From contig JAZNBF010000014.1 in NCBI GenBank assembly GCA_045586905.1, positions 15,834 to 79,833 of the forward strand: a stretch of DNA of 64,000 nt, written 5' to 3'. This document shows positions 7,987 to 22,439 of this stretch, in pieces (the stretch's first letter is position 1; each line of letters begins with the position of its first letter). This DNA is from Clostridia bacterium. GTDB lineage: Bacteria > Bacillota > Clostridia > UMGS1810. The translations under genes were made by a program, and so were the position numbers. The notes beneath the pieces were generated by a model. The model had not been told where the DNA came from. It saw only the letters and a list, made by a program, of their open reading frames with translations, and ran no database searches.

Positions 7987-8026
7987 CAAAAAAAAGGGAA
8001 TTCCTTTTTTACAAAAGGAATTCCCC
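7987..8026 (-). terminator. Rho-independent terminator after the 3' half of the split gene
   Basis: A 9-bp GC-containing stem (GGGAATTCC 7996-8004 / GGAATTCCC 8017-8025) is followed on the minus strand by T8. There is also a T-run on the plus side, so it is bidirectional. Confidence 0.8.
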
Positions 8027-8031
8027 GTTTT

Positions 8032-8415
8032 TTATCTGCAACCGCAGTCGCCTATTGTGGTTTCAAGACTATCGAAGTGACATTTTTCGGGTGGGAAAAA
8101 TTCATCAACCGGGAAGCTTAATCTGTCGAAAAGCTCACAGGGGTTGTTGTCGATTGACTGAATGCAATCACCCTGAGGGATACAGAAATCGATAACAGGG
8201 ATGCAAAGCTCTACCTTGCGGGTGAGACGGACAATGGTGAAAAGACCGATTGTGACATATACCTTTTTGCCATCGGTTGTATCGACCAAAATGTCGTCAA
8301 ACACACACGAGATGTCTTCGGGAACAGATGACACATCCATTTCACCGCAACAGCAGCATGAGTTATCAGTTGCGTCTACAACTCTTGTTGCAAGACAGAT
8401 GGGGTCTACAACTTC
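8032..8415 (-). CDS. 3' half of a split Cys-rich gene (no start codon of its own at the junction)
   Basis: The track ORF 8032..8340 (102 aa) is open for a further 35 codons upstream. Host-derived reading from the crossover core is EVVDPICLATRVVDATDNSCCCCGE-MDVSS...DCGCR*. It continues in frame from the 5' half at 17333 once 8414-17322 is removed. Confidence 0.75.
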   Translation of the reverse strand, partial: EVVDPICLATRVVDATDNSCCCCGEMDVSSVPEDISCVFDDILVDTTDGKKVYVTIGLFTIVRLTRKVELCIPVIDFCIPQGDCIQSIDNNPCELFDRLSFPVDEFFPPEKCHFDSLETTIGDCGCR

Positions 8416-8427
8416 TGTTTGTGACAG
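8402..8427. repeat. Left junction (attL-like) of the intervening element
   Basis: GGGTCTACAACT-TC-TGTTTGTGACAG. The 10-nt run TCTGTTTGTG (8414-8423) is identical to 17323-17332. The right arm matches the right-junction dyad at 10/12 positions. Confidence 0.7.
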
Positions 8428-9266
8428 CTTTTTTCGCGTTGCTTTTCAAGCGTGAGTTGAGCTTTATCGAAGGTTCTTTTTGATATTATGGCAAGCTGGG
8501 GCAAGTGATGGACATAGTTTTCCTCAATGGGCAAAACCCTTCTTGTGCTTTCCATAAAATCGACCGTCTCGCTTTTGTTGTTGACGAGAATACCACAGTA
8601 TATGGGGTTTGACAAAATCCGTCTGATAGTTTTGGCATTCCATTGTTTGCCAAACTTTGTAGGTGTATTTTTTTCGTTAAGATGGGCGGCAATTTTCCGA
8701 AGTCCCATGTCGGATTTTGTGTAGAGGGAAAAAATCTTTTTTACAACTTTGCTCTCGACTTTATTCACACAAAGTGAGTATGTACCTGTTTTATCGTAAC
8801 CATATATGAGCGGCGGCGTTCTTCCCTTGCCTGCCGAAACCTTTTTGCCGAAAATTATTCTTTTTGATAAGTTGTAGGACTCTTCCTGCGCAATGGCAGC
8901 AAACATTGTGAGGGCAAATTCGGACTCTCCTAAAGTGTCCATGTTGCACGAGAGAAATCTCACATCGATGCCTCTTGATTTGAGTGTTCGTATGCCTACA
9001 AGAAAATCTACCGTGTTGCGCGCAAAGCGGCTGATGTCCTTAACAACGAGCATATCGAAAGTATGATTTTTGCTTTCATCAAGCATTGAAGAAAAAGCCT
9101 CACGGTTTTTAAGAGCTTTGCCGCTGATGCCTCGGTCGGCATAGATTTTAACAAGGTTATAATTGTATTTTTTTGCATATTCTTCGAAGAAAGCTTTTTG
9201 ATTTTCGAGTGATGACAATTGCTTTTCGCTTTTGGTTGACACTCTGCAATAAGCAGCGATATTCAT
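8406..9266 (-). CDS. Serine recombinase (resolvase catalytic domain plus 'recombinase' domain; no zinc-ribbon/coiled-coil)
   Basis: 286 aa with nucleophile motif AAYCRVSTKS and E-helix AIAQEESYNLSKRI. Recombinase-domain signatures are WNAKTIRRILSNPIYCG and LAIISKRTFDKAQ. The ORF reads across the crossover core and stops 5 nt beyond it. Confidence 0.9.
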   Translation of the reverse strand: MNIAAYCRVSTKSEKQLSSLENQKAFFEEYAKKYNYNLVKIYADRGISGKALKNREAFSSMLDESKNHTFDMLVVKDISRFARNTVDFLVGIRTLKSRGIDVRFLSCNMDTLGESEFALTMFAAIAQEESYNLSKRIIFGKKVSAGKGRTPPLIYGYDKTGTYSLCVNKVESKVVKKIFSLYTKSDMGLRKIAAHLNEKNTPTKFGKQWNAKTIRRILSNPIYCGILVNNKSETVDFMESTRRVLPIEENYVHHLPQLAIISKRTFDKAQLTLEKQREKSCHKQKL

Positions 9267-9303
9267 AAAAAAACCTCCTTGCTACAAGTGTATGCAAAGG
9301 AGG
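9267..9303 (-). terminator. Intrinsic terminator after the 397-aa SLH gene; its 3' arm is the recombinase Shine-Dalgarno
   Basis: Minus strand reads CCTCCTTTGC-atacacttgta-GCAAGGAGG-TTTTTTT-ATG. This is a 9-bp stem with one bulge. The U-run serves as the spacer between the SD and the recombinase ATG (9266). Confidence 0.65.
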
Positions 9304-9321
9304 TTTTAAGTTTCTTAAATG

Positions 9322-10515
9322 TTAAGGAATAAGAGTTGTGGGATCTTTTATACCAAACATTATCTCCAAAAGGAAATCTACATCATCGAGTGACATTTCA
9401 GGGTGTGTGGCAAGCTTTGAATAGAAAGCAGACTGAGCTTCTTCATCAAGAGCTTCGTATTTGGATTTTGCAAGTTGAACATCGGAACGGTATGTGTTTT
9501 TTACATAATTTTCAACATAAATCCACTCGCCATCAGCTGCATCGGCAAGAGTTTTCTGAATGGTACCAGCAACAACTTCGCCATCTACCTCGCCGCCTCT
9601 TACGATGTTTAATATGTTACGCTCTACATCACTTAATCTCAAAGTGGAACTGGTGATGACGCCAAGAAGCTTGTTGAGTTTTTCGACAACCAAAGCCTGT
9701 TTTGCGGAGTCAAACTGAGGAGTATCGGGCTCGTCAGGAGTGCTCGGTGTACTCGGAGTGCTTGGTGTACTCGGAGTGCTCGGTGTACTTGGTGTGCTTG
9801 AACCGCCACCGGAGCTTCCGCCACCGGAGTTTCCGCCACCGGAGTTTCCGCCACCACTGAAGCTGCCACCACCAATACTAGCACCTCCGCCAAAGCTTAC
9901 GCCGGGAGTTGTTGTGCTATCCTGAACAAAGTTGGCAAGGAGCAATGAAAGCTCACCTCTTGTCATGTTCTCTGTTGCTCTGAATGTGTTGTTGGCTTCC
10001 AAAGATATCAATCGGTTTGATATTACAGTTTTAACATCATTTTCTGCCCATGCAGAAACGGGATCGGATATTGCTATGTTGCCACCAAGATTGTAAAGTC
10101 CATTTACTCTTACAACTATCGCGCAAGCCTGTTCACGGGTAACCGGAGAATCGCCACGGAAGGTGCCATCTTCAAAGCCATTGATATAGCCGGCTTTTTT
10201 AGCAATTTTCACATGGCTGTAATACCACTTGTCTTCTGTCACATCGGAAAATACTAGAGTGTCCGGCACGGTGTATTTTTTGATGTTATTTATCATCTTA
10301 CAAAGTTCGGCTCTGGAAACACTTCGCTGAGGGGCAAAGGTGCCATCACCATTGCCATTTATTATGCCTGCATTTGCAAGCTTATATATTGCTTTGCCTA
10401 CCGTGGTTGAAGCATCAACATCGGTGAAGGAGATTTTTGTGTCGGCCAAAACGGGAACAATACTGTATGTGGCAATTAATATTACTGCCAAAAAAACTGA
10501 TAGAAACTTTTTCAT
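9322..10515 (-). CDS. Secreted S-layer-homology (3x SLH) protein with Gly/Ser and PST linker
   Basis: 397 aa with a signal peptide (MKKFLSVFLAVILIATYSIVPVLA) and three SLH modules (FTDVD..., FSDVTEDKWYY..., ISDPVSAWAEN...). These are followed by a GGGNSGGGSS run and a (PST)6 run, then a C-terminal domain of unknown function. Confidence 0.85.
   Translation of the reverse strand: MKKFLSVFLAVILIATYSIVPVLADTKISFTDVDASTTVGKAIYKLANAGIINGNGDGTFAPQRSVSRAELCKMINNIKKYTVPDTLVFSDVTEDKWYYSHVKIAKKAGYINGFEDGTFRGDSPVTREQACAIVVRVNGLYNLGGNIAISDPVSAWAENDVKTVISNRLISLEANNTFRATENMTRGELSLLLANFVQDSTTTPGVSFGGGASIGGGSFSGGGNSGGGNSGGGSSGGGSSTPSTPSTPSTPSTPSTPSTPDEPDTPQFDSAKQALVVEKLNKLLGVITSSTLRLSDVERNILNIVRGGEVDGEVVAGTIQKTLADAADGEWIYVENYVKNTYRSDVQLAKSKYEALDEEAQSAFYSKLATHPEMSLDDVDFLLEIMFGIKDPTTLIP
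9737..9799 (-). repeat. Tandem 9-nt (18-nt) coding repeat encoding (PST)n
   Basis: Seven units: ggagtgctc ggtgtactc ggagtgctt ggtgtactc ggagtgctc ggtgtactt ggtgtgctt. They lie inside the 397-aa SLH gene. Confidence 0.9.
9803..9850 (-). repeat. Tandem 15-nt coding repeat encoding the GGNSG-type linker
   Basis: ccgccaccggagctt / ccgccaccggagttt / ccgccaccggagttt, directly adjacent to the PST repeat. Confidence 0.85.
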
Positions 10516-10540
10516 TTTGTCACCTTTTCTTTCTTTGATA

Positions 10541-10572
10541 ATAATAGGCAGAAATTACTTTCTGCCTATTAT
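10541..10572 (-). terminator. 14-bp hairpin downstream of the giant SLH gene (attenuator/terminator candidate)
   Basis: ATAATAGGCAGAAA-ttac-TTTCTGCCTATTAT is a perfect stem, but it has only a weak U-tract on the minus strand. Confidence 0.45.
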
Positions 10573-10583
10573 TTCGCAGTGTC

Positions 10584-13500
10584 TTATTCAACTATTGCAC
10601 GGCTTACAACCACTTTGTTTGAGCCGGCTATAATTTCATATGTGTTACCGTCATCCTTTCTGGAAACCGTAATCTCTTTGCCCTGAACTGTCAAGGTGTA
10701 GGTGTCGGTATTTTTGCGTTCTACTCTTATTGTTTTACCTTTGATGGTTACCTCGTAGGTGTCTTGATCAATCTGAGTAATTCTGTCGATGCTGTCTAAG
10801 CCATCAAACTTGTTGACAATAAGATTGTAGCCTCTGCCAATGAGATTGAATGCTTCGTCGGTTGTGATGTTGATTGATTCGAATGCTTTGTTTACGCCTT
10901 TGCGAAGTTTTGCATAGTCATCGGAAGCATAATCCCTGTTGAATGAGCTTTGTTCGTACCAATCGAGGATTTTGTCTACTTTATCACCGAATTTTTCTTT
11001 AATCTTTTTCTCAACTGCTTTTACAATGTTATTGTCAAGCTTGTCGGGGAGAGCGCCTGTGTCGGCATAGTCACCAACCATATCGGCAATGATATTTGCA
11101 TATTTCACAAAGAGGTCTTCGTAGTCGAGAACAAGCTGGTCAAACTCGTCTTTCGAAAGCTCTTCCGTGTACCATTTCATTGCATCATCGCCAACAAGTG
11201 CTATTGCAACGAGGAGATTGTAGTAATCGGTGTAATCTTTGATTGCATAGCCTGTGCCAACACCTGTGTTTGTGTCGAAAACACATTCAACACTTGTGAG
11301 ACGGACAAGCTCTCTGAGGTACTGATTTTCTCTGTAATAATAGTTGCGTGTAGCTTTTTCGTCCAGAAGTTCTGCAAAACGATCACGGAATACTGCATAT
11401 ACATCGTCCACAAGGTTGATGATGAAATTGAGACCTGTGGAAATGTAAGCTGTTTGACCGTTTGCATTGGCCTGTTTGCCCTCTTCGATGTCTAAGAGGA
11501 GCTCATTGTAGGCTCTTGTGTAGATAGCTTCAAGCTTTGCTCTCGGATAGATTTTGAAAACTTGACTTGGAACCTTGGCAATGAGATCGTCGAAGGTGTA
11601 GTCTTTAACCTGCATTTCAAATGCTGTAAGAATGAAGCTGTTGTCTGATGCGATTTCAAATTCATCATCGCTTACAAGCTGATGTATCATAGTGTCGAGT
11701 ACATCACGATATCTTGACTCAATGATTTCATCGATGATATCGTCGAGCTGATCTGTTTCTCTGAGATGCTCTATTGCATGATCAACATATTCTTCAAAAT
11801 CGGAAAGGTCGCCTTTGTCAACAAAATAGTCAACAGCTTCGTTAATTATTGCTTCACGCTTGTCGGCATCATTATCGAAGAGATAGAGAACAAGCTCAAT
11901 GATAAACTGTTTGGTGTTTAAACTGTCAATGTTTGCAGGACAATAGCCAAATTCATCTTCAACTATTTCTTCGATATTGTCGTTGATGTAGTCTTCGATA
12001 TGACCGTCGATTTCTTCCTCTGTCATACCAAAAGCAAGAAGTTCAGCTTTTATCTCATCATATGTCATAGGATCAAGAACTGCTTTTGCATACTGAACAA
12101 TAAAGTCCATAGCATTTTCTTCGATTGGATCCGTAAACACAATGCCTGAATATTCTGCGATATATTCATTACGCTTTGTGGTGCTTGTTCTGATTTCATC
12201 TTCTACATCAGCTAAAATATGATGTTCAATTTCAGCAAAGAGGCTGTTCATGTCGGTGTAGCCAAGTTCGTGGGCAAGGTTATCATCGATTGTAACAGAT
12301 GAGTTTACCTTGTGCTTTACAACATCAATTACAAGGTCGAATGCATTTTGAGGAACAGCTGCATAGTTTGCATAGGTTATGCCTGCATGCTCTGCAATCT
12401 GTTCTACAAGGAATGTGTCGGCCGGATCTGCAACTCTTTCTTTGGCATCTTCCAGTGCATATTCTTTTGCTTTTCCGAGAATATCGATAGCTGTGTAGCC
12501 GAGTTTTTCCAAAGCATATTCGGAATCATTTTCAAAATAGATTTCTACAAAGCGTGCCATAAGCTCTCTCGGAGTAGATGGCAGGTCATCTGCTTTTTCG
12601 AATTCATCAAATGATGCTGCTTTTACATATGCATCAACCTTTGCCGCATCATCTAAGGATGCACTGAAGTTTGCAAAGAAGTTATCTATTTCACTTTGTG
12701 TCATAGAGGAGAAATCTTCGCCTGTCATAAGCTCAAGTTCTTCATAGTCGCCGCTTGTCTGTGCATCTGATACAACCTTTGTGAGAATCATTTTGAAGAG
12801 GTCGAGAGATGTGGCGGTGTCGGGAACTGATGACTGACCGATAAATTCCTGCAAAACATCGCCATATGCTGATTTTGACGTGTCTCTGATGTCTGTTGCT
12901 ATGATATCACCAAGCTCGTCGACAGCGGCATCGAGCATTGCTGCGCTGTCTACATAGCCTGCAAAATCAGCGAGTTCTTCATATGACATTGTTTGGATAG
13001 AATTGTCGATAAAATCGATGATTATAGAAACGGTTGAAGCAGGTTTAACTTCTGCGTAGGTATAGCCTGAGAAGTCGGTTGTGGAAACAACATGATTGAA
13101 GAAATCGGGATTGTCAAGATCGTCGACGAGAACTGTCAGGATATCATCCTTGCGGGCGTCAAACAGAGCCTGCAAATCGGCATATCCAAGTTCTACTGCG
13201 ATTTCATCAGGTGTCATTGCTTCAAAATGAGACTTAACAACATCGACAATCAAATCGGTTGTAGAAAGTCCGGATGATGGCTTCTGTATATCTTCGAACG
13301 GTGTGCCACGGAAATTATAGTGAACAACATCATCGAAGAAACCATCAGAAGACACCAGATTGTCGGTAATGTATTTTACAAGACGCTTTTTAACATTTGC
13401 TTTGAATGTGGGGTCCGTGTTAATGAGGTCTTTGGTCCATTTGATGATGGTGGGTGTAGCTGCGGAGGTAAGATCTTCATCTGTTACCGTTACATTGTAG

Positions 13501-16301
13501 CCTATAAAATCTGCAAATGCTGTCTTGATAAGGTCAGGATCGTCAAGACTTGTTTCGCATATATCTCTTATCATATCGAGCGCAGTGGCATCGGAGGAGA
13601 TTGCTCTGTCTATTGCTTCTTTAAAGAGGCTCTTGATTTCGGAAACATCGTCAGGATTTGAAGAATTTGCCATTCTTTCAAAATATTCGAAGATGGCGTC
13701 TTTGAGTTCATCATTGTCGCTGAGTGATTCTTTTGCGTTGTCTACAATGTATTCTTCAAGCTCTTCCTTGCCGATGATATCGGCAAATCTTACGAAAACT
13801 TCAAAAGGAAGAATGTTGTTGTTTGCATCTATTATGCCTTTTTCGCGAAGCTTTGAAAGTGCCTTGTTTCCACCTTTCTCTATCTGCTCCTGGAGACTTT
13901 GCTGAAGAGGTGTGGTGCTTGCGGAGAATGAATCCCAAATGAAGTTTTTGAAGGTATCCATTGCTCTTGTTCCTGTAACGGTTCTGTTTCCGGAACCGTC
14001 AACAGTGACAACAGTAGGCTCGTAATATCTTGCAAAGGTAAATCCTGTGCCGATCTTATCGACATAGGCATATATGCTGAGCTGAGGAGATCTTTCTTCA
14101 ACTGTGAGTACGCCCGAAGAATCTACGATTGTGTCAGTAACCAAAGTGGTTGAAGTGAATTTTTCCCATTTGTTTGTTTCGGGATTGTAGTACCAGCCAA
14201 ATTTCACTTTGTGTGTATATTCATTACCTACATATACGGGTGACACACTTGCAGTCTCCCTGTAACCTTCCTGCTCATAGAGTAAAAGGCCATCAAACAC
14301 ACTCTGGGGAACAGATGTGTTTTCGGGGACTATGTGTTCTCCCACCTGACTTCCCAAAGACATGAAGCGTACTGTGTAAAGTGGTGTTGTTTGCCATACA
14401 GCAGTAAATACCCAACCACCCTGTGGATCATAATCTATGATGGTGACATCCTCGCCACCGTTATAAAGATGGCCATTGCAGCTCCATCCAAGGAATACAT
14501 CGTATCCGTTTTCCACCTTGTCGGACTCCGGAAGAGTTATGGTTGAACCATAGGGAGTGGTAGCTACCGGAGGAGTATATCCGAGGATAAATGAACCACC
14601 ATTTGAGAAGTTATATGAAATGTTTATGGAATTTCTTGTATAGTACAATTTGAGAACAAGAGCATTGCCAGCCAAAACAGTGCCGCTTGATTTGCTCAAA
14701 TCAGGATCGGGATTGTAGGTGAAACCTGTAAAATAAGGAGGAACAACGCTGACGGAATCACCTATGTTTTTACCACTTATTGTTGCAGAAGATGTACATA
14801 CATAATCTGAAGCATCAGATGGCACACCACCTATTCTGAGCTGATAATACTCTATTGTGTAGTCAGCGGGGATAGCGGTTTTGTTGTAATAAAGCTTGAG
14901 AACGAGTGTTCCGTTTTTATTTACAACACCTGTTTTTACCTGAGATGCGTGAGAACCGTTATAGTAATAGCCATCTATATCTGTGGTAAGAGGTGCTGCT
15001 TCAACGGTTGCATTGAGAACATCTTTTTTAGTTTGTGTTTTTGAAGAGTCTCTAAGATACTCCACAGGATTTGCACCGTTTTGGAAATAGTGTTCAATCT
15101 TGTATGTATACACTGCAACGAAATCATTTGATGAGTTTACGGTTATTGTGTCACCGGGATTTTTTATTGCACCATATCTGTCACGCCATCCTGCAAAGCC
15201 GGGATAGTTTGTCATATTGGGAGTGGGAAGAGTATAGGTGTTGCCTTTTTTTACTTTATCTGACTTAGACACACCTGCACCCGAAACATTTATAAGATAA
15301 GTTACAGGAGATGATGATGAAGAACTGCCGCCTGTGGAAATGCTGTAATTATCGCCTTTGTATGTTGCCTGTGTAATTTCCTTTATATTTTTAAAAACAT
15401 CTTCCGATTTGTAGTTGTCAAAATGAACTACACCGTTGACGTCTTTAACTACGATGTTTTCGCCCACTGTTGTATTTACAAGTCTTACTGAATCTTCACC
15501 GCCTCGGCAAAGAATGCGGCCTTTTACAGTAACATTTTCAAATACAACGGAGCCAAAGCCCACACCATCACCTATGATGAGGTCGCCCTCTATTGTTACA
15601 TCGCGGAGTATTACACCTGATGCACGGATAATGACTGAGTCAAGACCTGCTTTGGTGTATGTCCCTGAGCTGACATAGTAGGTTTTGATGATGTTGTGCA
15701 TAAGCTGAGCAAATTCCTCACGGGTTATGTATGAGTGAGGGTTGAGATTGGCATTTTCATCACCGTTTATGTAGCCCTTTTGAGAAAGAATTGCAGCATA
15801 AGGCTTTGCCCAGGAGGAGATTGCTCCCGAGTCGGGATGAGCCGAAAGAGCAGAATAGTCGGAAGTTTCTAAAACAAGTGCTCTGGCAATAACTGCAAAA
15901 ACTTCTTCTCTTGTGATGGGATCGTTTGGTCGCATTGTGCCTGTGCCATCACCCTGGAAAGTCTGCATGTTTACAGCTTTGGCAATTTCAGTATAGAACC
16001 AGTCTTTTGGTGATACATCACTAAAAGATGAGATATCGGCCATTTTCGTGGCACCAAATGCACGGTTGATAACCGTTGCCAGTTCGGCACGTGTAAGATT
16101 GCCGGTTGGTTCGATAGTGGTGGTGGTTCGGCCTCTAAGAAGCCCGTTTGCCACAGCCGCTCTCATAGCTTCAGCTGACCATCCGGTAGGGAAATCGGTA
16201 AAGCCTGAAGTGTTGGCTGCAAACGCTTGCAAACACGTTGGCAAAACCATGGTAAAGCTCAGAATAATTGCAAGAGCTTTTTTTATAAAACTTTTTTTCA
16301 T
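10584..16301 (-). CDS. Giant (1905 aa) SLH-anchored surface protein
   Basis: It has a signal peptide and three N-terminal SLH modules, then a beta-helix-like segment. A Listeria/Bacteroides-type repeat follows (GFAGWRDRYGAIKNPGDTITV), then two MucBP-like beta modules (YKIEHYFQN..., YTIEYYQLR...). After that comes about 1200 aa of acidic helical repeats and three short C-terminal beta repeats. Confidence 0.9.
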   Translation of the reverse strand: MKKSFIKKALAIILSFTMVLPTCLQAFAANTSGFTDFPTGWSAEAMRAAVANGLLRGRTTTTIEPTGNLTRAELATVINRAFGATKMADISSFSDVSPKDWFYTEIAKAVNMQTFQGDGTGTMRPNDPITREEVFAVIARALVLETSDYSALSAHPDSGAISSWAKPYAAILSQKGYINGDENANLNPHSYITREEFAQLMHNIIKTYYVSSGTYTKAGLDSVIIRASGVILRDVTIEGDLIIGDGVGFGSVVFENVTVKGRILCRGGEDSVRLVNTTVGENIVVKDVNGVVHFDNYKSEDVFKNIKEITQATYKGDNYSISTGGSSSSSSPVTYLINVSGAGVSKSDKVKKGNTYTLPTPNMTNYPGFAGWRDRYGAIKNPGDTITVNSSNDFVAVYTYKIEHYFQNGANPVEYLRDSSKTQTKKDVLNATVEAAPLTTDIDGYYYNGSHASQVKTGVVNKNGTLVLKLYYNKTAIPADYTIEYYQLRIGGVPSDASDYVCTSSATISGKNIGDSVSVVPPYFTGFTYNPDPDLSKSSGTVLAGNALVLKLYYTRNSINISYNFSNGGSFILGYTPPVATTPYGSTITLPESDKVENGYDVFLGWSCNGHLYNGGEDVTIIDYDPQGGWVFTAVWQTTPLYTVRFMSLGSQVGEHIVPENTSVPQSVFDGLLLYEQEGYRETASVSPVYVGNEYTHKVKFGWYYNPETNKWEKFTSTTLVTDTIVDSSGVLTVEERSPQLSIYAYVDKIGTGFTFARYYEPTVVTVDGSGNRTVTGTRAMDTFKNFIWDSFSASTTPLQQSLQEQIEKGGNKALSKLREKGIIDANNNILPFEVFVRFADIIGKEELEEYIVDNAKESLSDNDELKDAIFEYFERMANSSNPDDVSEIKSLFKEAIDRAISSDATALDMIRDICETSLDDPDLIKTAFADFIGYNVTVTDEDLTSAATPTIIKWTKDLINTDPTFKANVKKRLVKYITDNLVSSDGFFDDVVHYNFRGTPFEDIQKPSSGLSTTDLIVDVVKSHFEAMTPDEIAVELGYADLQALFDARKDDILTVLVDDLDNPDFFNHVVSTTDFSGYTYAEVKPASTVSIIIDFIDNSIQTMSYEELADFAGYVDSAAMLDAAVDELGDIIATDIRDTSKSAYGDVLQEFIGQSSVPDTATSLDLFKMILTKVVSDAQTSGDYEELELMTGEDFSSMTQSEIDNFFANFSASLDDAAKVDAYVKAASFDEFEKADDLPSTPRELMARFVEIYFENDSEYALEKLGYTAIDILGKAKEYALEDAKERVADPADTFLVEQIAEHAGITYANYAAVPQNAFDLVIDVVKHKVNSSVTIDDNLAHELGYTDMNSLFAEIEHHILADVEDEIRTSTTKRNEYIAEYSGIVFTDPIEENAMDFIVQYAKAVLDPMTYDEIKAELLAFGMTEEEIDGHIEDYINDNIEEIVEDEFGYCPANIDSLNTKQFIIELVLYLFDNDADKREAIINEAVDYFVDKGDLSDFEEYVDHAIEHLRETDQLDDIIDEIIESRYRDVLDTMIHQLVSDDEFEIASDNSFILTAFEMQVKDYTFDDLIAKVPSQVFKIYPRAKLEAIYTRAYNELLLDIEEGKQANANGQTAYISTGLNFIINLVDDVYAVFRDRFAELLDEKATRNYYYRENQYLRELVRLTSVECVFDTNTGVGTGYAIKDYTDYYNLLVAIALVGDDAMKWYTEELSKDEFDQLVLDYEDLFVKYANIIADMVGDYADTGALPDKLDNNIVKAVEKKIKEKFGDKVDKILDWYEQSSFNRDYASDDYAKLRKGVNKAFESINITTDEAFNLIGRGYNLIVNKFDGLDSIDRITQIDQDTYEVTIKGKTIRVERKNTDTYTLTVQGKEITVSRKDDGNTYEIIAGSNKVVVSRAIVE

Positions 16302-16328
16302 TGTACTTCCTCCCAGTGCTATATTTGA

Positions 16329-17159
16329 TTAGGTTATTAAACTTAGGTAGTGTGCTTTTTTGAGACTTTTTTCGTTTTGATACGAGGAGCGGATCTGATC
16401 GACAAGTCCCGTGCTTTCTCCTGCATCTTTCAAAAGACCTGTCAGTTTGGAAAGTAATTTGTCAATCTGATCATCACAGTCTCTCTCTAAAGCTGCTGCT
16501 TTTGGATATACCTCGGCAAGCAAAGACTTTTTCTTTGCGGACCTTTGTTCTTTTGTCATATTACGCCACAATGCCTTATACTCTGAAAAGGCCTGATTAT
16601 ATATGACATCAAGCTGACCGACAAAGTTGGCTTTTATAACATAAACCTGAGCTATGCATGCCGATATTTCACTGCTGTTGTCAGGTTTGGAGCTATCTTC
16701 TTCTGAATCGCCTTTGTTTGTTGTTTCTTCGGATTGTGTCGCGTTCTGGTTTGACGCAGCTTCCTGCTTTAGTTGGTTTGCGGTTTCGGCATCTACCTTT
16801 TCACCGCTTTCGACAATTGTTATATTTTTGTCTTCACCAAGCTCAAGCTCTGTACCGAACATTTTTTCAATTGTTGTTTGTTCGGTTATAAGGCTCACGA
16901 GTTCGCTATCGTCGATCACACCTTTTTTGTGAAGTTCTTCTTCAAGCGGTTTTGACGGTCTGACGTTGTATTTCGAATTTTCCTCAAGATAGGTTCCTAC
17001 CTCTTCGGAATTTTCACTCATGAGAGCATCGATGTCGGAGTCGGAATATTTAACCCAGTAATACAGTGCCTTTATGTTTCCAAACTGCCACCAGACAAGG
17101 CAGGCACAAAGGGAAAATATAACGATAATTGATATTAAAATTTTATGTGTTTTTTTCAT
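16329..17159 (-). CDS. Membrane-anchored protein of unknown function (first gene of the cargo operon)
   Basis: MKKTHKILISIIVIFSLCACLVWW is an N-terminal anchor, followed by an acidic low-complexity middle and a helical C-terminus. The track start at 17180 would add MCGDCLE; I prefer ATG 17159. Confidence 0.65.
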   Translation of the reverse strand: MKKTHKILISIIVIFSLCACLVWWQFGNIKALYYWVKYSDSDIDALMSENSEEVGTYLEENSKYNVRPSKPLEEELHKKGVIDDSELVSLITEQTTIEKMFGTELELGEDKNITIVESGEKVDAETANQLKQEAASNQNATQSEETTNKGDSEEDSSKPDNSSEISACIAQVYVIKANFVGQLDVIYNQAFSEYKALWRNMTKEQRSAKKKSLLAEVYPKAAALERDCDDQIDKLLSKLTGLLKDAGESTGLVDQIRSSYQNEKSLKKAHYLSLIT

Positions 17160-17233
17160 TTCTAAGCAATCACCACACATATGTTTTTATACTTATGGGC
17201 ACAATAACCCATAATTAAAACTATACATATTAC

Positions 17234-17262
17234 ATTCTATACTTTTATTCATCTTTTGTCAA
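17234..17262 (-). promoter_or_regulatory. SigmaA-type promoter for the element's cargo operon
   Basis: Minus strand reads TTGACA (17262-17257), a 17-nt spacer, then TAGAAT (17239-17234). It lies about 75 nt upstream of ATG 17159, just inside the right end of the element. Confidence 0.5.
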
Positions 17263-17777
17263 GTGAAACCGAAGATTTTAGCATGCCAAAAAAAGACAAA
17301 TATTGCACAGGTGGCACAAACATCTGTTTGTGCCACAGGAAGATTGTTTTTCTGCCAGAGCTGAATGTCGGCTGCTTCTTCTTTATATTTGGAACTGAAG
17401 GTTTTTGCATTGCCTTCTGAACCGAAAAGAATAACCTTTTTGTCATAGCTTGCAATACCCTCTACCTGAGTAGGTCTGCCAAGACCTGTGAAGACATCAA
17501 GTGTTATGCGAATGAAAATTTTGAGATCGACGCTATAATAGCCTCTGTTGAATGCCACAGGCTCAACATCGGAATAGATCCATATGATTTCTGCTTTCCG
17601 GCATCTTACGCTTGTTGACCTGTCTAAAAGGCTCTGCCCACACTCAGTGAGATATACTCTTAAGTTTTCTATGCATTCTTTATCACGGCACGAGTCATAT
17701 ACTTTTTTGGTCTGTATACATACTTCATTACCACAGTTAGCGTTGTTTGAGTTACAGGAATTTACCCTATCGCTCAT
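17259..17777 (-). CDS. 5' half of the split Cys-rich gene (151 native codons plus 21 read-through codons from the element)
   Basis: MSDRVNSCNSNNANCGNEVCIQTKKVYDSCRDKECIENLRVY...LPVAQT, then the junk tail DVCATCAIFVFFWHAKIFGFT*. A strong SD (GGAGG) lies 8 nt upstream of ATG 17777. Confidence 0.75.
   Translation of the reverse strand: MSDRVNSCNSNNANCGNEVCIQTKKVYDSCRDKECIENLRVYLTECGQSLLDRSTSVRCRKAEIIWIYSDVEPVAFNRGYYSVDLKIFIRITLDVFTGLGRPTQVEGIASYDKKVILFGSEGNAKTFSSKYKEEAADIQLWQKNNLPVAQTDVCATCAIFVFFWHAKIFGFT
17311..17336. repeat. Right junction (attR-like): perfect 12-2-12 dyad
   Basis: GTGGCACAAACA-TC-TGTTTGTGCCAC is a perfect 26-bp palindrome around a central TC. It contains the 10-nt repeat TCTGTTTGTG (17323-17332). 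Confidence 0.75.
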
Positions 17778-17830: not shown

Positions 17831-17858
17831 TATAATATGAGCGAAACCGTTATTTTGT
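17831..17858 (-). promoter_or_regulatory. SigmaK-like (mother-cell type) promoter candidate upstream of the split gene
   Basis: Minus strand reads cACa, a 17-nt spacer, then CATATTATA. This fits the Bacillus sigmaK pattern AC-N16/17-CATAnnnTA. It sits about 55 nt upstream of ATG 17777. Confidence 0.35.
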
Positions 17859-17906: not shown

Positions 17907-18380
17907 ATGAAAAAATCAAAAAGGGTGTCCGAATCTTACACCGAGCATGTTCAGATTCTGTCGCAGGCAAGTCTTAACGGATACAAAAGACTTTTTGGTG
18001 GAAAGCTTATGGAGTGGATTGACATTGTGGCAGCAGTAGTGGCAAGAAGGCACTCGGGGTGTAATGTGACAACGGTATCGGTGGATAGTCTCATTTTCAA
18101 AAAACCCGCCTATGCCAATGACACCATAACCATCAACGGATTTATTACCTATGCAGGAAAAACATCGATGGAAATTTGCGTTAAAACTTATCTTGAAAAT
18201 CTTGACGGAAGCCGGGAAGAAATCAACACTGCTTTTCTGGTTATGGTGGCAATTGACGAAAACGAAAAACCTGTGGAGGTGCCCACTCTTATAGCAGAAA
18301 GTGAAACCGACAAAGCAAATTTTGAAGCGGCAAAAAGAAGAAGAGAACTCAGAAAGCTAAGAGAAAATGAAAATTTTTAA
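17907..18380 (+). CDS. Acyl-CoA thioesterase (hotdog fold, YciA/BFIT-like)
   Basis: 157 aa. The layout (...NGYKRLFGGKLMEWIDIVAAVVARRHSG..VTTVSVDSLIFKKPA...) is typical of acyl-CoA hydrolases. Confidence 0.8.
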   Translation: MKKSKRVSESYTEHVQILSQASLNGYKRLFGGKLMEWIDIVAAVVARRHSGCNVTTVSVDSLIFKKPAYANDTITINGFITYAGKTSMEICVKTYLENLDGSREEINTAFLVMVAIDENEKPVEVPTLIAESETDKANFEAAKRRRELRKLRENENF

Positions 18381-19387
18381 AAATCTAAAAACATTGCAAC
18401 AACAAGCTCTGCCATGGATTTTGAAAGATTTGTTTTATTCTTTATAGCCTGTTTTGCCCTTTCTGTGTCGATGTAGTCACTGCCCGATATTCTGCCAAAG
18501 CTGAAAAGCCCGTATCCGTAGCGGTCGTCCCGGCCAAAGCCGCTGAGGTCTTCTGTGTAGATGTTTAACAGAAGACGGATTTCATCGGGAGTGAGGAAAC
18601 GGTTGTAACGCATTCGTCCCTTTGATTGCAAAATGGCAACAGCACCTGTTATTATGGGAGTGGCCATGGATGTGCCGCTGAGGGTTGCATAGGTGTTGTT
18701 TTTATAGGTGGAGTAGATGTCGATGCCTGCGGCAGATATCTCAGCGCTGGGGCCCCGTGAACTGAAGCTTGCTATGTGCTTGCCGCAGTCAACTGCCGAA
18801 ACAGCAATGGTCTCATTAAAGCTTGCAGGATAACCCATGGCGCCCTCTCCCTTTTCGCCTTCGTTGCCTGCCGCACAAATCATGGTTATGCCATTTTTGC
18901 GTGCAAGCTTCACAAGAGCGGCATAACGCCCCGATGAAAAAGATGACGAAAACGACATGTTTATAACGCTGACTCTGCACTTTATGAGCCACAGTATACT
19001 TTTTTCTATCGCCTGATAGTCGGTTTTTCCATGGGTGTCGAAAGCTTTGCAGATGTACAGTTCTGACAAGGGAGCAACTCCAACCACGCCGATGCCATTT
19101 TTCTCGGCAGCTACGATTCCTGCCACATGGGTGCCATGTCCGTTGGTGTCTTCTATATCATAAATTCCGGTGCCCGAAAAAGAAATACCGTCTTTAATGC
19201 GCTCTTTAAGATCGGGATGGGTGGTGTCGATGCCTGTGTCTATTATTCCCACTCTTATGCCCTCTCCCATTGTCTCCTTCCATTCGAGAGGAGCGCCGAC
19301 CATTCTGACTCCATAGTCGACAACCTCCTCACCAGATCCTTTGTCTGAACTTATGAAGGTGTATTCACTTATTTTAAAATTTTTCAT
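18377..19387 (-). CDS. Subtilisin-family (S8) serine protease, apparently intracellular
   Basis: 336 aa. Catalytic triad motifs are GIIDTGID, HGTHVAG and GTSMATP. There is no signal peptide. Confidence 0.9.
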   Translation of the reverse strand: MKNFKISEYTFISSDKGSGEEVVDYGVRMVGAPLEWKETMGEGIRVGIIDTGIDTTHPDLKERIKDGISFSGTGIYDIEDTNGHGTHVAGIVAAEKNGIGVVGVAPLSELYICKAFDTHGKTDYQAIEKSILWLIKCRVSVINMSFSSSFSSGRYAALVKLARKNGITMICAAGNEGEKGEGAMGYPASFNETIAVSAVDCGKHIASFSSRGPSAEISAAGIDIYSTYKNNTYATLSGTSMATPIITGAVAILQSKGRMRYNRFLTPDEIRLLLNIYTEDLSGFGRDDRYGYGLFSFGRISGSDYIDTERAKQAIKNKTNLSKSMAELVVAMFLDF

Positions 19388-19643
19388 ATCACATCTCTCC
19401 AGAGTTTATTTGCTATTATATGAAAAACATTTCATGTTTGACATTGGAGATGAAATTATAAGCTTCATAAAGCAAAACGACTATTAAATAATTAGATAAA
19501 TATTACAAAGACCAAACATAATATTTTGTGACTTTTTTCATATATACAAAAGACATATTTTGTAATATAATTATAACGTATGTGGATTGTTAGGTCTACT
19601 TATCACGATTACTTAAAACACAAAATTACAGGAGATGCTGAAA

Positions 19644-20489
19644 ATGGACACAACTTTATTGGTAATGGCTGCCGGAATGGGTTCCCGTTTTGGCGGGCTG
19701 AAGCAAATTGCTCCCATGGGCAAAAATGGTGAAATCATACTTGACTTTTCAGTATATGATGCAATCAAAGCAGGCTTCAACAAGGCGGTTTTCATCATAA
19801 AAAAAGAAATAGAACACGACTTCAGAGAAGCAGCAGGAAAAAGAATTGAAAAGATGATTGACACAGAATATGTTTTCCAGCAGATTGATTCATCTCTTCC
19901 AAACGGTTTTTCAGTGCCCGACTGCAGAAAGAAACCCTGGGGAACAGGTCACGCTGTTCTTTGCGCAAAAGACGCTGTAAAAACCCCATTTGCAGCAATC
20001 AATGCAGATGACTACTATGGCAGAAATTCATTAAAGCTTGTCCACTCTGCTCTTGTTGGCGGAAGTGAAATCTGTATGGCAGGTTTCAGACTTGGTAACA
20101 CCTTAACCGAAAACGGTACCGTGAGCAGAGGCATTTGTGAAATAGAAAACGGACTTTTGAAATCGGTAACCGAGCACACAGCTCTCGACAAAAACTCACC
20201 CTTCCCCATGGACACCGTTGTTTCCATGAACATGTGGGGATTTAAGCCAACAATATTCGATGAGCTTGAAACAAGATTTGAAGATTTCCTCAAAAATCTT
20301 TCAAACCCTGAAAAAGAAGAGTTTTTCCTTCCTTTTGTTGTGGACGACCTTATTAAAACAAGAAATCAGAAAGTTGACGCCTACATATCTGATGACAAGT
20401 GGTATGGCGTAACATATAAAGAAGATACCCCCTCGGTAAGAGAGGCACTTCAAAAACTTATGGAAGAAGGTTATTACGATGGGATCTAA
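19644..20489 (+). CDS. Sugar-1-phosphate nucleotidyltransferase
   Basis: N-terminal signature LLVMAAGMGSRFGGLKQ. I prefer ATG 19644, 9 nt after the AGGAG SD, over 19635. It overlaps the downstream kinase gene by 11 nt. Confidence 0.8.
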   Translation: MDTTLLVMAAGMGSRFGGLKQIAPMGKNGEIILDFSVYDAIKAGFNKAVFIIKKEIEHDFREAAGKRIEKMIDTEYVFQQIDSSLPNGFSVPDCRKKPWGTGHAVLCAKDAVKTPFAAINADDYYGRNSLKLVHSALVGGSEICMAGFRLGNTLTENGTVSRGICEIENGLLKSVTEHTALDKNSPFPMDTVVSMNMWGFKPTIFDELETRFEDFLKNLSNPEKEEFFLPFVVDDLIKTRNQKVDAYISDDKWYGVTYKEDTPSVREALQKLMEEGYYDGI

Positions 20490-21561
20490 CATAGCCCCAA
20501 TAAACGAAATAATGCATGCTTTTTCAATTAAGTTTGATGTCGACCCTTACGGTGACGGTCATATCAATGACACATATCTTGCAGATGCAAAACCCCGCTA
20601 CATACTTCAGAGAATCAACACAGCTGTTTTCAAAAATCCCCAGAAACTTATGGAGAACATCTGGAATGTTACCGAGCATCTCAGAGGAATAATAGAAAAA
20701 AACGGAGGCAATCCAAACAGAGAAACTCTCACTGTTATAAAAACAAGAGATGACAAGCTGTTTTATGAGGCAAGTGACGGAAAATGTTACAGAGTGTATA
20801 TTTTCATTGACAACACTCTTTCTCTAAACCTCCCCGAAAACCCCACTCAGTTTGAAAACTCTGCAAAGGCTTTCGGTCGTTTTCAAAATATGCTTGCAAG
20901 TTTTGATGCTTCTTCTCTTTATGAGACTATACCCGATTTTCATAACACACCAAAGAGAACCGAAAACCTTAAAGCTGCCTACGAAAAAAATGCTGCAGGC
21001 AGAAAAGATGAGGTTGAGGAGATTTACAACGAATATCTCAAATTTGCAGAGGACTGTGCTGTTATAACAAACGATCTTGAATCGGGTGCTATTCCCAAAC
21101 GAGTTACCCACAATGACACAAAGCTCAACAACGTGTTGTTTGATCCTGTGACACAGGAAGGCGTTTGCGTTATCGACCTCGATACCGTTATGCCGGGTTC
21201 TCTCCTCTTTGACTATGGCGATTCACTCCGTTTTGGTGCTTCTACTGCTGTTGAAGATGAGGCCGACCTTGACAAGGTATGGTTTGACCTTGAATATTTT
21301 GAAAGCTACACAAGAGGTTTCCTCTCCGAGCTCAAAGAAACAATCACAAAGCGCGAGGTTGAGCTTATGCCACTCGCTGCACTCACCATGACATATGAAT
21401 GCGGCATACGCTTCCTCACTGACTATCTCGACGGTGACACATACTTCAAAATTCACTATCCTGATCAGAACCTTGTGAGAGCTAAAAACCATCTCAAGCT
21501 TTGTCAGGACATTTTCTCAAAGCTTGGCGACATGAAAAAAATAGTTGAAAAATACATGTAA
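20479..21561 (+). CDS. nahK: N-acetylhexosamine 1-kinase-like (NahK/APH-fold) anomeric sugar kinase
   Basis: 360 aa and collinear with Bifidobacterium NahK as I remember it (PYGDGHINDTYL, ILQRINT..F, RVTHNDTKLNNVLFD, VIDLDTVMPGSLLFDYGDSLRFGAST, YPDQNLVRAK). Confidence 0.8.
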   Translation: MGSNIAPINEIMHAFSIKFDVDPYGDGHINDTYLADAKPRYILQRINTAVFKNPQKLMENIWNVTEHLRGIIEKNGGNPNRETLTVIKTRDDKLFYEASDGKCYRVYIFIDNTLSLNLPENPTQFENSAKAFGRFQNMLASFDASSLYETIPDFHNTPKRTENLKAAYEKNAAGRKDEVEEIYNEYLKFAEDCAVITNDLESGAIPKRVTHNDTKLNNVLFDPVTQEGVCVIDLDTVMPGSLLFDYGDSLRFGASTAVEDEADLDKVWFDLEYFESYTRGFLSELKETITKREVELMPLAALTMTYECGIRFLTDYLDGDTYFKIHYPDQNLVRAKNHLKLCQDIFSKLGDMKKIVEKYM

Positions 21562-21601
21562 TCTGACATAAGTTTAATTTGTCTGAAACCATTTTTCGAC
21601 A

Positions 21602-21631
21602 GTATACAAATCAAAGCCTTCGGGAAAGATT
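21602..21631 (+). promoter_or_regulatory. Forespore (sigmaF/sigmaG)-type promoter candidate for sigG
   Basis: GTATA (21602-21606), a 16-nt spacer, then GGAAAGATT. This resembles GYATA-N15/16-GGnnAnAHT. It overlaps a 12-bp hairpin (GAAAGATTTTAT/ATAAAATCTTTC). Confidence 0.3.
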
Positions 21632-21668
21632 TTATTGCAGACATAAAATCTTTCTCGGAGGTTTTTTT

Positions 21669-22439
21669 ATGATAAACAAGGTAGAAATTTGCGGTGTGAA
21701 CACGTCTAAACTTCCGGTGCTTTCAAACGACGAAAAGCTCAGACTTTTTGACAGGATAAAAAAAGGTGACAAGGAAGCAAGAGAAGAATTTATAAGCGGT
21801 AATTTAAGGCTTGTGCTTTCTGTTATACAAAAATTTTCAGGACGTGGCGAAAATGCCGACGACCTTTTTCAGGTGGGTTGCATCGGGCTTATAAAATCTG
21901 TGGATAATTTTGATCTTTCACAAAATGTAAAGTTTTCCACTTATGCAGTACCGATGATTATTGGTGAGATAAGAAGATATCTGCGTGACAATAACTCCAT
22001 AAGAGTGAGCAGATCGCTGAGAGATACAGCCTACAAGGCACTGGGAGCAAAAGAAAGACTTATGGCCAGAAACGAGACAGAGCCTACCATTGACGAAATT
22101 GCAAAAGAGCTTGGCATGGAAAAGGAAGACATTGTGTTTGCTCTTGATGCAATACAGGAGCCTGTGTCGCTTTTTGAACCTGTGTATAATGACGGAAATG
22201 ATGCAATTTTTGTGATGGATCAGCTGAGCGACGAAAAAAGTCTTGACGAGAACTGGCTTGAAGAAATATCACTTAAAGAAGCAATGAAAAAACTCGGCGA
22301 CCGTGAAAAGCACATTATCAATCTCAGATTTTACAAAGGCAGAACTCAGATGGAAGTGGCAAAGGAGCTCGGAATAAGTCAGGCACAGGTTTCGAGGCTT
22401 GAAAAAACAGCACTAAAATCGATGAAGAAAAACATGTGA
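21669..22439 (+). CDS. sigG: Sporulation sigma factor SigG
   Basis: The N-terminus MINKVEICGVNTSKLPVLSNDE... and the segment NLRLVLSVIQKFSGRGENADDLFQVGCIGLIKSVDNFDLSQNVKFSTYAVPMIIGEIRRYLRDNNSIRVSRSL are near-identical to B. subtilis SigG. GGAGG lies 8 nt upstream. The track ORF start (21579) is an upstream extension. Confidence 0.93.
   Translation: MINKVEICGVNTSKLPVLSNDEKLRLFDRIKKGDKEAREEFISGNLRLVLSVIQKFSGRGENADDLFQVGCIGLIKSVDNFDLSQNVKFSTYAVPMIIGEIRRYLRDNNSIRVSRSLRDTAYKALGAKERLMARNETEPTIDEIAKELGMEKEDIVFALDAIQEPVSLFEPVYNDGNDAIFVMDQLSDEKSLDENWLEEISLKEAMKKLGDREKHIINLRFYKGRTQMEVAKELGISQAQVSRLEKTALKSMKKNM

Follow-up and report, generated by a model that had tools for sequence, protein, structure and literature searches.

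The 64,000-nucleotide stretch analysed here, referred to as the window, lies on contig JAZNBF010000014.1 (assembly GCA_045586905.1) of a Clostridia bacterium from an uncultured clostridial lineage, the nearest named relatives of which are metagenome-assembled genomes (MAGs) of Oscillospiraceae. A sequence-only reading of the window had proposed that two minus-strand open reading frames (ORFs) are the halves of one cysteine-rich gene, split by an insert of 8.9 kb that carries a serine recombinase gene, and had likened this insert to skin, an element excised during sporulation. The two halves were found at 17777-17325 and 8415-8032, and all coordinates given in that reading hold. The upstream ORF (17777..17259, 172 aa) consists of 151 codons of the gene followed by 21 unrelated codons of the insert, DVCATCAIFVFFWHAKIFGFT, and a stop codon. 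The downstream half has no start codon at the junction; its frame is open from 8445, next to a TGA at 8448-8446, and closes with the stop codon at 8034-8032. The terminator that had been predicted downstream of the gene was recovered as well (Table 1).

The minus-strand 10-mer CACAAACAGA, noted earlier at both junctions, occurs in just two copies in the window, at 8414-8423 and 17323-17332. When the insert was deleted in silico between the GA dinucleotides 17324-17323 and 8415-8414, a stretch of 8,909 bp was removed and the halves fused in frame as claimed: 17777..17323 joined to 8413..8032 gives 837 nt, encoding 278 aa with 20 Cys residues. The fused ORF is colinear with its homologs, and the coding sequence is split at codon 151/152. 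The fused gene is predicted to read CTTCCTGTGGCACAAACAGAAGTTGTAGACCCCATC across its junction and the excised circle AAAAGCTGTCACAAACAGATGTTTGTGCCACCTGTG, and the tryptic peptide spanning the junction of the predicted fused protein is NNLPVAQTEVVDPICLATR.

Table 1. Features of the split gene and of the element within it, in window coordinates
Feature	Coordinates	Strand	Remarks
Sigma-K-type promoter of the split gene	17831..17858	-	AC-N17-CATATTATA
5' half, csxA-family gene	17325..17777	-	Codons 1-151
Upstream recombination site	17310..17337	-	Host B arm, GA (crossover 17324-17323), element P' arm
Sigma-70-like promoter	17234..17262	-	Just inside the element, upstream of the cargo; TTGACA-17-TAGAAT, 11/12; consensus match only
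Cargo gene 1, 283 aa	16329..17180	-	Hydrophobic N-terminal stretch; no curated family
Cargo gene 2, 1,905 aa	10584..16301	-	Three N-terminal SLH domains (Pfam E 6e-28)
Cargo gene 3, 397 aa	9322..10515	-	Three SLH domains (Pfam E 6e-35), Gly-rich and PST repeats
Hairpin followed by a T-run	9267..9307	-	In the gap between SLH gene and recombinase gene; 3' arm holds the recombinase Shine-Dalgarno sequence AGGAGG
Short serine recombinase, 286 aa	8406..9266	-	Resolvase catalytic and Recombinase domains only
Downstream recombination site	8401..8428	-	Element P arm, GA (crossover 8415-8414), host B' arm: GCTGTCACAAACA-GA-AGTTGTAGACCCC
3' half, csxA-family gene	8032..8415	-	Codons 152-278 and stop codon
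Intrinsic terminator of the split gene	7995..8026	-	14-bp stem, then a T-run

The interrupted gene and its family

A homolog search with the fused protein, which had been proposed as a check, returned 2,590 matches at E<=1e-3 among 5.8 billion protein clusters; at the same threshold the family comprises 1,390 clusters at 50% identity. The best 120 of the 2,590 homologs are uninterrupted proteins of 265-315 aa, which cover 89-100% of the query at identities of no more than 74%. The homolog alignments run continuously over residues 151/152, with E152, P156 and L159 invariant, so that the two ORFs were correctly seen as parts of one protein. Searches of local copies of Pfam, NCBIfam, the PDB sequences and the PDB folds gave the protein no name (no PDB fold match had E<0.01). 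Some of its homologs carry the precomputed label PF27077, and a literature search on this accession returned no description of the element.

The target was identified through the CsxA sequence printed in the supplement of PMC4942563. BLASTP against CsxA of Clostridium sporogenes (G9F2G0) gave an E-value of 5e-8 with 25% identity over 256 aa, and hhalign aligned 231 columns, reaching CsxA residues 5-258, with a probability of 96.4% and an E-value of 1e-9. Motifs common to both proteins are CIQxxKV(Y/F)DxCxxKEC, EVV at the junction, ITLGLFxI, VQLxVPAYxxC and (F/Y)PP(E/Q). On this homology the target is a distant relative of CsxA, within a family of cysteine-rich spore-envelope proteins, in line with the earlier guess, made from the Cys-rich composition, that it belongs to the spore coat or exosporium. 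CsxA is a protein of the exosporium basal layer in C. sporogenes and in group I C. botulinum (PMC4942563, PMC7333573). It self-assembles in the mother cell into a disulfide-linked exosporium lattice (PMC7333573) and has been reported as essential for exosporium assembly (bioRxiv 10.64898/2026.09.03.749163). An AlphaFold model of the target contains long beta-strands, at a mean predicted local distance difference test (pLDDT) score of 67.5; the local copy of Pfam gave no match that would point to the SPOCS/DUF3794 fold.

Upstream of the gene lies a promoter motif of the sigma-K type (Table 1). The corresponding pattern, AC-N16-17-CATAnnnT[AG], was found 32-76 nt (mostly 39-55 nt) before the ATG in 52 of 61 homolog loci, compared with a background rate of 0.013 per 150 nt, which supports expression of the target gene in the mother cell under sigma-K. 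Because the split at codon 151/152 coincides with a conserved sigma-K-type promoter and with homology to CsxA, the target would count as an interrupted mother-cell gene.

Recurrence at the same codon

The gene is split at the same codon in at least 15 other loci, six of them GTDB species representatives in which the match ends at residue 152-157 (L072, L081-L085); loci interrupted at this codon are L072/L003, L081-L087 and L093-L097. Both halves were recovered within one locus in L081 (insert of ~4.4 kb), L083 (~8.4 kb) and L084 (~8.5 kb). On contig SIG434 (L072 and L003) the element is ~12 kb long, and the synteny is the same as in the window, with FMN reductase, HD hydrolase, DnaG and RpoD. 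In each of L093-L097, which were picked from long contigs by their short recombinases, the 3' half follows directly after the recombinase. Eleven of the best 150 cluster representatives at 50% identity are 5' halves, ending at residues 150-160, after which unrelated tails follow. For the empty-site comparison that had been suggested, close uninterrupted relatives were found in the scan of GTDB species representatives, for example L006 with 81% identity.

Between split lineages, the 5' half showed a proportion of synonymous differences (pS) of 0.69-0.94 and of nonsynonymous differences (pN) of 0.075-0.19. The corresponding values were 0.63-0.81 and 0.09-0.25 for the 3' half, and 0.76-0.87 and 0.16-0.21 for the recombinase. 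These ratios indicate strong purifying selection on the recombinase and on each of the two halves, with synonymous sites saturated. All nine of the 3' halves examined are intact, have 124-129 codons and start with EVVDPI. The residue aligned with the first Met of the window's 3' half is M, V or T in the nine sequences, so that no conserved start would allow the 3' half to be translated alone. The identities of recombinase and host gene co-vary (r 0.64, from 36 non-independent pairs), and the element has a guanine-plus-cytosine (GC) content of 0.415, against 0.430 for the window. Purifying selection, intact 3' halves without a start of their own, co-variation and the GC match together argue that the split gene is still in use, which would require excision. 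A metagenome scan with a single recombinase query yielded 5 loci only. From its distribution over the loci described here, the element family is widespread, in many uncultured gut Clostridia.

A short serine recombinase at the junction

The serine recombinase that had been described at the left junction is present, but its gene does not merely abut the junction: the ORF runs through it, and the last two codons and the stop codon are host DNA. The protein matches only two Pfam families, PF00239 (E 9e-32) and PF07508 (E 4e-24, residues 170-275). The catalytic residues R8, S10, D77, R80 and R83 are invariant in alignment A4, S10 being just nearly invariant in the 41-sequence alignment A2. The recombinase was aligned to the CcrB profile (positions 9-286 of 542), to the XisF profile (positions 2-282 of 465; E 1.6e-23, with a score of 83 against a cut-off of 375) and to residues 63-296 of the 545-aa SPbeta SprA. 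It ends at the zinc-ribbon boundary, because the alignments with CcrB and SprA stop there, and neither Pfam nor the profile alignments found a zinc-ribbon (PF13408) or coiled-coil domain in the 286 aa. By its domain content the protein is a truncated derivative of a large serine recombinase, equivalent to the N-terminal part of the ~500-aa type, and not a canonical member. A small serine recombinase (~180-200 aa, with a simple helix-turn-helix) was ruled out by the length of 286 aa and the Recombinase domain of the large type.

The closest full-length relatives are large serine recombinases of 480-500 aa with 55-61% identity, and the long forms shown in alignment A2 carry the zinc ribbon and the coiled coil. 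Among the 120 closest cluster representatives, 95 have 251-323 aa and 25 have more than 330 aa. A neighbour-joining tree placed 24 long forms and one short form in a single long-form clade, with the 93 other short forms outside it. A one-off truncation or pseudogene was rejected on three grounds, namely that 95 of 120 relatives are equally short, that all but one of the short forms lie outside the long clade and that the gene is under purifying selection. The C-terminal tails of at least 58 short forms read ...CHKQKL or ...ADTNRS(C/G), which are the same junction DNA read in two frames; these 58 or more proteins therefore sit at the same site.

An integrase of the SSV1/Mx8 type, in which the missing part is restored on the circle, was rejected, as the circle adds just 24 unrelated codons (4 in L081) and no zinc ribbon. 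A separate or remnant zinc-ribbon gene in the 64-kb window was rejected on the basis of tblastn searches with seven C-terminal halves, all of which gave E > 0.1.

Full-length recombinases were found at the same codon in other elements. In L084 (2095-10580) and L086 (7799-17095), full-length relatives of 483-530 aa share 52-60% identity; the recombinase there (485-530 aa) is encoded on the opposite strand and accompanied by an AAA_14/DUF4143 ATPase. These elements have cargo of the window type (a membrane protein and SLH proteins), different arms of the attachment (att) sites and the outer motif CTTGCAnnATGCT. In L087 (4176-11858) the host gene, a distant homolog with 40-44% identity to the window gene, is interrupted at the same position by an element of ~6.9 kb. 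The gene for its full-length serine recombinase of 501 aa lies against the junction, and an ABC transporter makes up the cargo. Long forms were also found on IMG/VR contigs, beside the 3' half in L098 (1160-3314), beside the 5' half in L100 (2635-4625) and near a fragment covering target residues 90-171 in L099; the long relatives in L098 and L100 have 483-502 aa. This suggests that prophage-like relatives use the same site. Because long forms occupy the same codon in L084/L086 and L087 and occur on the IMG/VR contigs, the ancestors of the short lineage were probably integrases of mobile or viral elements, for which this site was already the target.

Recombination sites

The upstream site is a near-perfect palindrome, GGCACAAACA-GA-TGTTTGTGCC, with inverted-repeat arms at 17294-17322 and 17325-17353 that are 2 nt apart. 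The P and P' arms of the element are 13-bp inverted repeats, in the window GCTGTCACAAACA-GA-TGTTTGTGCCACC, which match at 11 of 13 positions. When both junctions were compared across related loci, GA alone was found in common. The 10-nt direct repeat reported earlier is thus present at both junctions of the window, but it is not a duplication of the target site, a candidate rejected since the other loci share GA only; the 10 identical nucleotides are explained by the likeness between the half-site of the host, GGCACAAACA, and that of the element, GTCACAAACA.

Sites of the short type showed no conservation beyond the 13-bp arms in the loci compared, whereas the sites of L084/L086, which have a full-length recombinase, carry a conserved outer motif 11-23 bp from the site centre, where a zinc-ribbon domain would bind. 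The short sites match the short protein, which fits binding by the recombinase domain alone.

Cargo and regulatory features inside the element

The cargo genes are all co-oriented with the host gene. The product of cargo gene 1, read by eye from its hydrophobic N-terminus, appears to be membrane-anchored, and homologs of it were found in the SIG434, L083 and L084 elements. Giant SLH proteins stand at the position of cargo gene 2 in L003, L083, L084/L086, L093-L095 and L097; L096 has an SLH protein of 435 aa. Nearly every element carries SLH cargo, the exceptions being L081 and L087. The smallest element, of ~4.4 kb in L081 (10821-13859), encodes an OPT-like transporter and proteins of 115 aa and 260 aa instead of SLH proteins. 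No phage genes were seen in the elements. Within cargo gene 3, two adjoining tandem-repeat arrays at 9737-9870, with periods of 9/18 and 15/30, encode (PST)n and Gly-rich (GGNSG-like) linkers. In L094 a rotamase-domain protein adjoins the recombinase.

The terminator-like hairpin ahead of the recombinase gene, with which the cargo operon ends, has a folding energy of -18.7 kcal/mol (z -4.5) in the window, and its equivalent in L003 has -21.5 kcal/mol (z -5.4). The L003 hairpin also pairs with the recombinase start codon. In the loop of the window hairpin, CATACACT / CATATATT looks like a -10 element recognised by mother-cell sigma factors; a promoter within the loop is speculation. A tblastx comparison of the window and L081 elements found the recombinase alone in common and no conserved directionality factor; a small, fast-evolving factor might still be encoded in the element.

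Proposed mechanism and alternatives

We consider it likely that the insert is a gene-intervening element of the skin/gin type, which lies in a sigma-K-controlled gene of the CsxA family and is excised during development. The skin-like interpretation offered by the sequence-only reading gains support from the split architecture, the in-frame fusion, the serine recombinase, the sigma-K-type promoter, the homology to CsxA, the use of the same codon in many species and the signs of selection. In the proposed sequence of events, the 8,909-bp element stays integrated in vegetative cells and in the forespore (germ-line) chromosome, where the gene is split as observed, and the cargo, comprising one membrane protein and two SLH cell-surface proteins, would be transcribed from its own sigma-70-like promoter. 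The 286-aa recombinase would be made in the terminally differentiating mother cell. It would bind four similar 13-bp half-sites, the anatomy of which is seen in the DNA, cut at the central GA and exchange strands. This would release a circle of 8.9 kb with a near-palindromic attP and restore the 278-aa ORF, as in the in silico deletion. The restored gene would then be transcribed by sigma-K RNA polymerase and its product built into the spore surface. Irreversibility could come from the bias towards the intramolecular reaction and from the fact that the mother cell dies.

In full-length large serine recombinases, the zinc-ribbon/coiled-coil domain blocks recombination between attL and attR and provides the docking site of the directionality factor. 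An LI integrase without its coiled coil showed similar activity on attP x attB and attL x attR (PMC5499577). Because the zinc-ribbon/coiled-coil domain is lost, the short enzyme is expected, by analogy, to need no directionality factor and to excise the element free of cofactors. A broader proposal, to which we give an even chance, is that the short forms are a diversified natural lineage of minimal large serine recombinases. They would act as cofactor-free developmental excisionases on sites of ~28 bp and, in many uncultured gut Clostridia, rebuild an exosporium-scaffold gene in the mother cell; that excision would also take a conserved SLH operon out of the somatic genome.

Several points weigh against developmental excision by the short recombinase. 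We know of no large serine recombinase lacking the whole zinc-ribbon domain that has been shown to be active. The coiled-coil deletion mutant yielded a small fraction of product only (PMC5499577). Neither the fused gene nor the circle junction was seen as an excision product, and the closest fused protein in the databases is 74% identical. No convincing sigma-E or sigma-K promoter was found before the recombinase, where -10 elements of the CATA type occur without a consistent -35 element or spacing. The hairpin that buries the ribosome-binding site is kept in the closest relative (L003) only, and not in distant elements. Part of the purifying selection measured between species could be older than insertions that took place independently, and a helper protein might be encoded outside the window.

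It is unlikely, if still to be taken seriously, that the insert is an ordinary integrative element or a reversible switch that is excised in vegetative cells, the gene being dispensable or on/off variation of the spore surface being useful. The predicted direction neutrality of the short recombinase would suit such an element, as would the failure to find a sporulation promoter for its gene. The uninterrupted L006 is interleaved with split relatives, so that gains or losses have occurred, and full-length relatives adjoin halves of the same gene in IMG/VR viral contigs. However, a direction-neutral recombinase active in the germ line would soon lose an element without genes for replication or transfer, whereas the family has diverged along with its hosts and has a host-like GC content, and the cargo is kept across species in which the recombinases are just 55-77% identical. 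The target is moreover a mother-cell gene with a sigma-K-type promoter, as in all proven cases (PMC5595907, PMC4191935, PMC10747680).

A rather poor prospect is that the short recombinase is insufficient and depends on a second factor encoded elsewhere, such as a full-length recombinase, a zinc-ribbon protein or a DNA-bending protein of the host. Loss of the zinc ribbon removes a DNA-binding domain, deletion of the coiled coil weakens dimerisation ~100-fold (PMC5499577), and elements with full-length recombinases are found at the same codon (L084/L086, L087). Set against this, the tblastn search found no zinc-ribbon remnant in the window, the outer motif to which a zinc-ribbon domain would bind has been lost from short-type att sites, and 93 clusters of short forms constitute a large lineage almost wholly outside the long-form clade. 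A fossil insertion, in which the gene is dead or the halves are separate proteins and excision never takes place, is very improbable: an excision product was not seen and the 5' half is a complete ORF with start and stop, but the recombinase and the two halves have very low pN/pS at saturated synonymous sites, the nine 3' halves are intact with the invariant EVVDPI upstream of any possible start codon, the 21-codon tail of the 5' half has no counterpart in other split loci, and the catalytic residues of the recombinase are conserved.

Genomic neighbourhood

The host had been taken for a spore former, and this is borne out by a SigG gene at 21579-22439, which scores above both NCBIfam cut-offs, and by SpoVD/SpoVE-like proteins encoded by the host. 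Two ORFs (284 and 360 aa) precede sigG on the plus strand (19635-22439) and matched no NCBIfam model, and the usual spoIIGA-sigE pair was not recognised upstream of sigG in the window. An acyl-CoA thioesterase gene (17907-18380) lies between the promoter of the split gene and a gene for a subtilisin-like S8 peptidase on the minus strand (18377-19387), which has a weak likeness (E ~1e-10) to the germination proteases CspBA and CspC. In C. sporogenes, csxA is flanked by zapA and a U32 peptidase gene (PMC7333573). A U32 peptidase gene was found 6-9 kb downstream of the split gene in L097 (10827-20849, which also has zapA) and in L087 (11484-19355), a weak hint of a conserved csxA neighbourhood in these loci.

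Comparison with known systems

The element shares its architecture with skin, SPbeta, vfbin, vrin, gin and yin, the intervening elements described in PMC4191935, PMC5595907 and PMC10747680. The gin element in gerE of Bacillus cereus ATCC 10987 is likewise non-phage, interrupts a late mother-cell gene and uses a serine recombinase; the crossover falls on a central dinucleotide within a short stretch that is shared, and attP is an inverted repeat (PMC5595907). It differs in its size of 28.6 kb and its three serine recombinase genes, of which the active one, GirC, needs the directionality factor GirX (PMC5595907). The elements described here, in contrast, have 4.4-12 kb, one truncated recombinase and no conserved second gene, and they occur in many species.

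The elements skin in sigK (SpoIVCA in B. subtilis; CD1231/CD1234 in C. difficile) and SPbeta in spsM (SprA/SprB) also split a mother-cell gene and have a terminal serine recombinase gene, and their excised copy is lost with the mother cell, as proposed here. They are prophages or prophage remnants of ~15-134 kb. Their recombinases, however, are full-length enzymes of ~500-545 aa that include the zinc-ribbon and coiled-coil domains and have a directionality factor in each case, and their targets are a sigma factor gene and a polysaccharide synthesis gene, whereas the target here encodes a structural envelope protein. The yin element in yabG of Clostridium botulinum V73 is similar in being clostridial, in interrupting a sigma-K-controlled gene related to the spore coat and in having its recombinase at the junction (PMC10747680). 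It differs in being a single-strain prophage with a PF13408-containing recombinase, for which a candidate directionality factor has been proposed (PMC10747680).

A parallel to the behaviour proposed for the short recombinase is found in coiled-coil deletion mutants of large serine integrases (LI Int deltaCC), in which the distinction between attP x attB and attL x attR is abolished and the directionality factor is dispensable for excision; these laboratory constructs keep the zinc-ribbon core and have low activity (PMC5499577). Here, in comparison, the whole C-terminal domain is missing, the lineage is conserved as well as natural and diversified, and the sites are shortened to 13-bp half-sites. 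The recombinase is the more unusual part of the system: it would offer a natural test of the model in which the coiled coil controls directionality, and short recombinases of this kind could serve as compact tools for genome engineering. XisF of the fdxN element in Anabaena heterocysts is again a serine recombinase that frees a gene of its intervening element in terminally differentiated cells, but in another phylum and another developmental programme, and the NCBIfam match to it is partial. XisF has 465 aa and needs XisH and XisI.

With respect to the target, the homology to CsxA is of near-full length and both proteins have ~280-300 aa with 20-25 Cys residues, although identity is 25% and csxA has not been reported as interrupted. 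The literature search turned up no account of this element, nor one of an interrupted csxA. If the proposal is true, the csxA family would join sigK, spsM, spoVFB, spoVR, gerE and yabG among the sporulation genes that are rebuilt by excision, and the phenomenon would be common in uncultured gut Clostridia, beyond a few model strains. The near-constant SLH cargo raises the question of why genes for the vegetative surface travel, co-oriented, inside a gene for the spore surface. Four features set the element apart from the known ones: the gene that is interrupted, the clade of the host, a conserved SLH cargo that is not of phage type and, above all, a recombinase without zinc-ribbon and coiled-coil domains that has no evident directionality factor.

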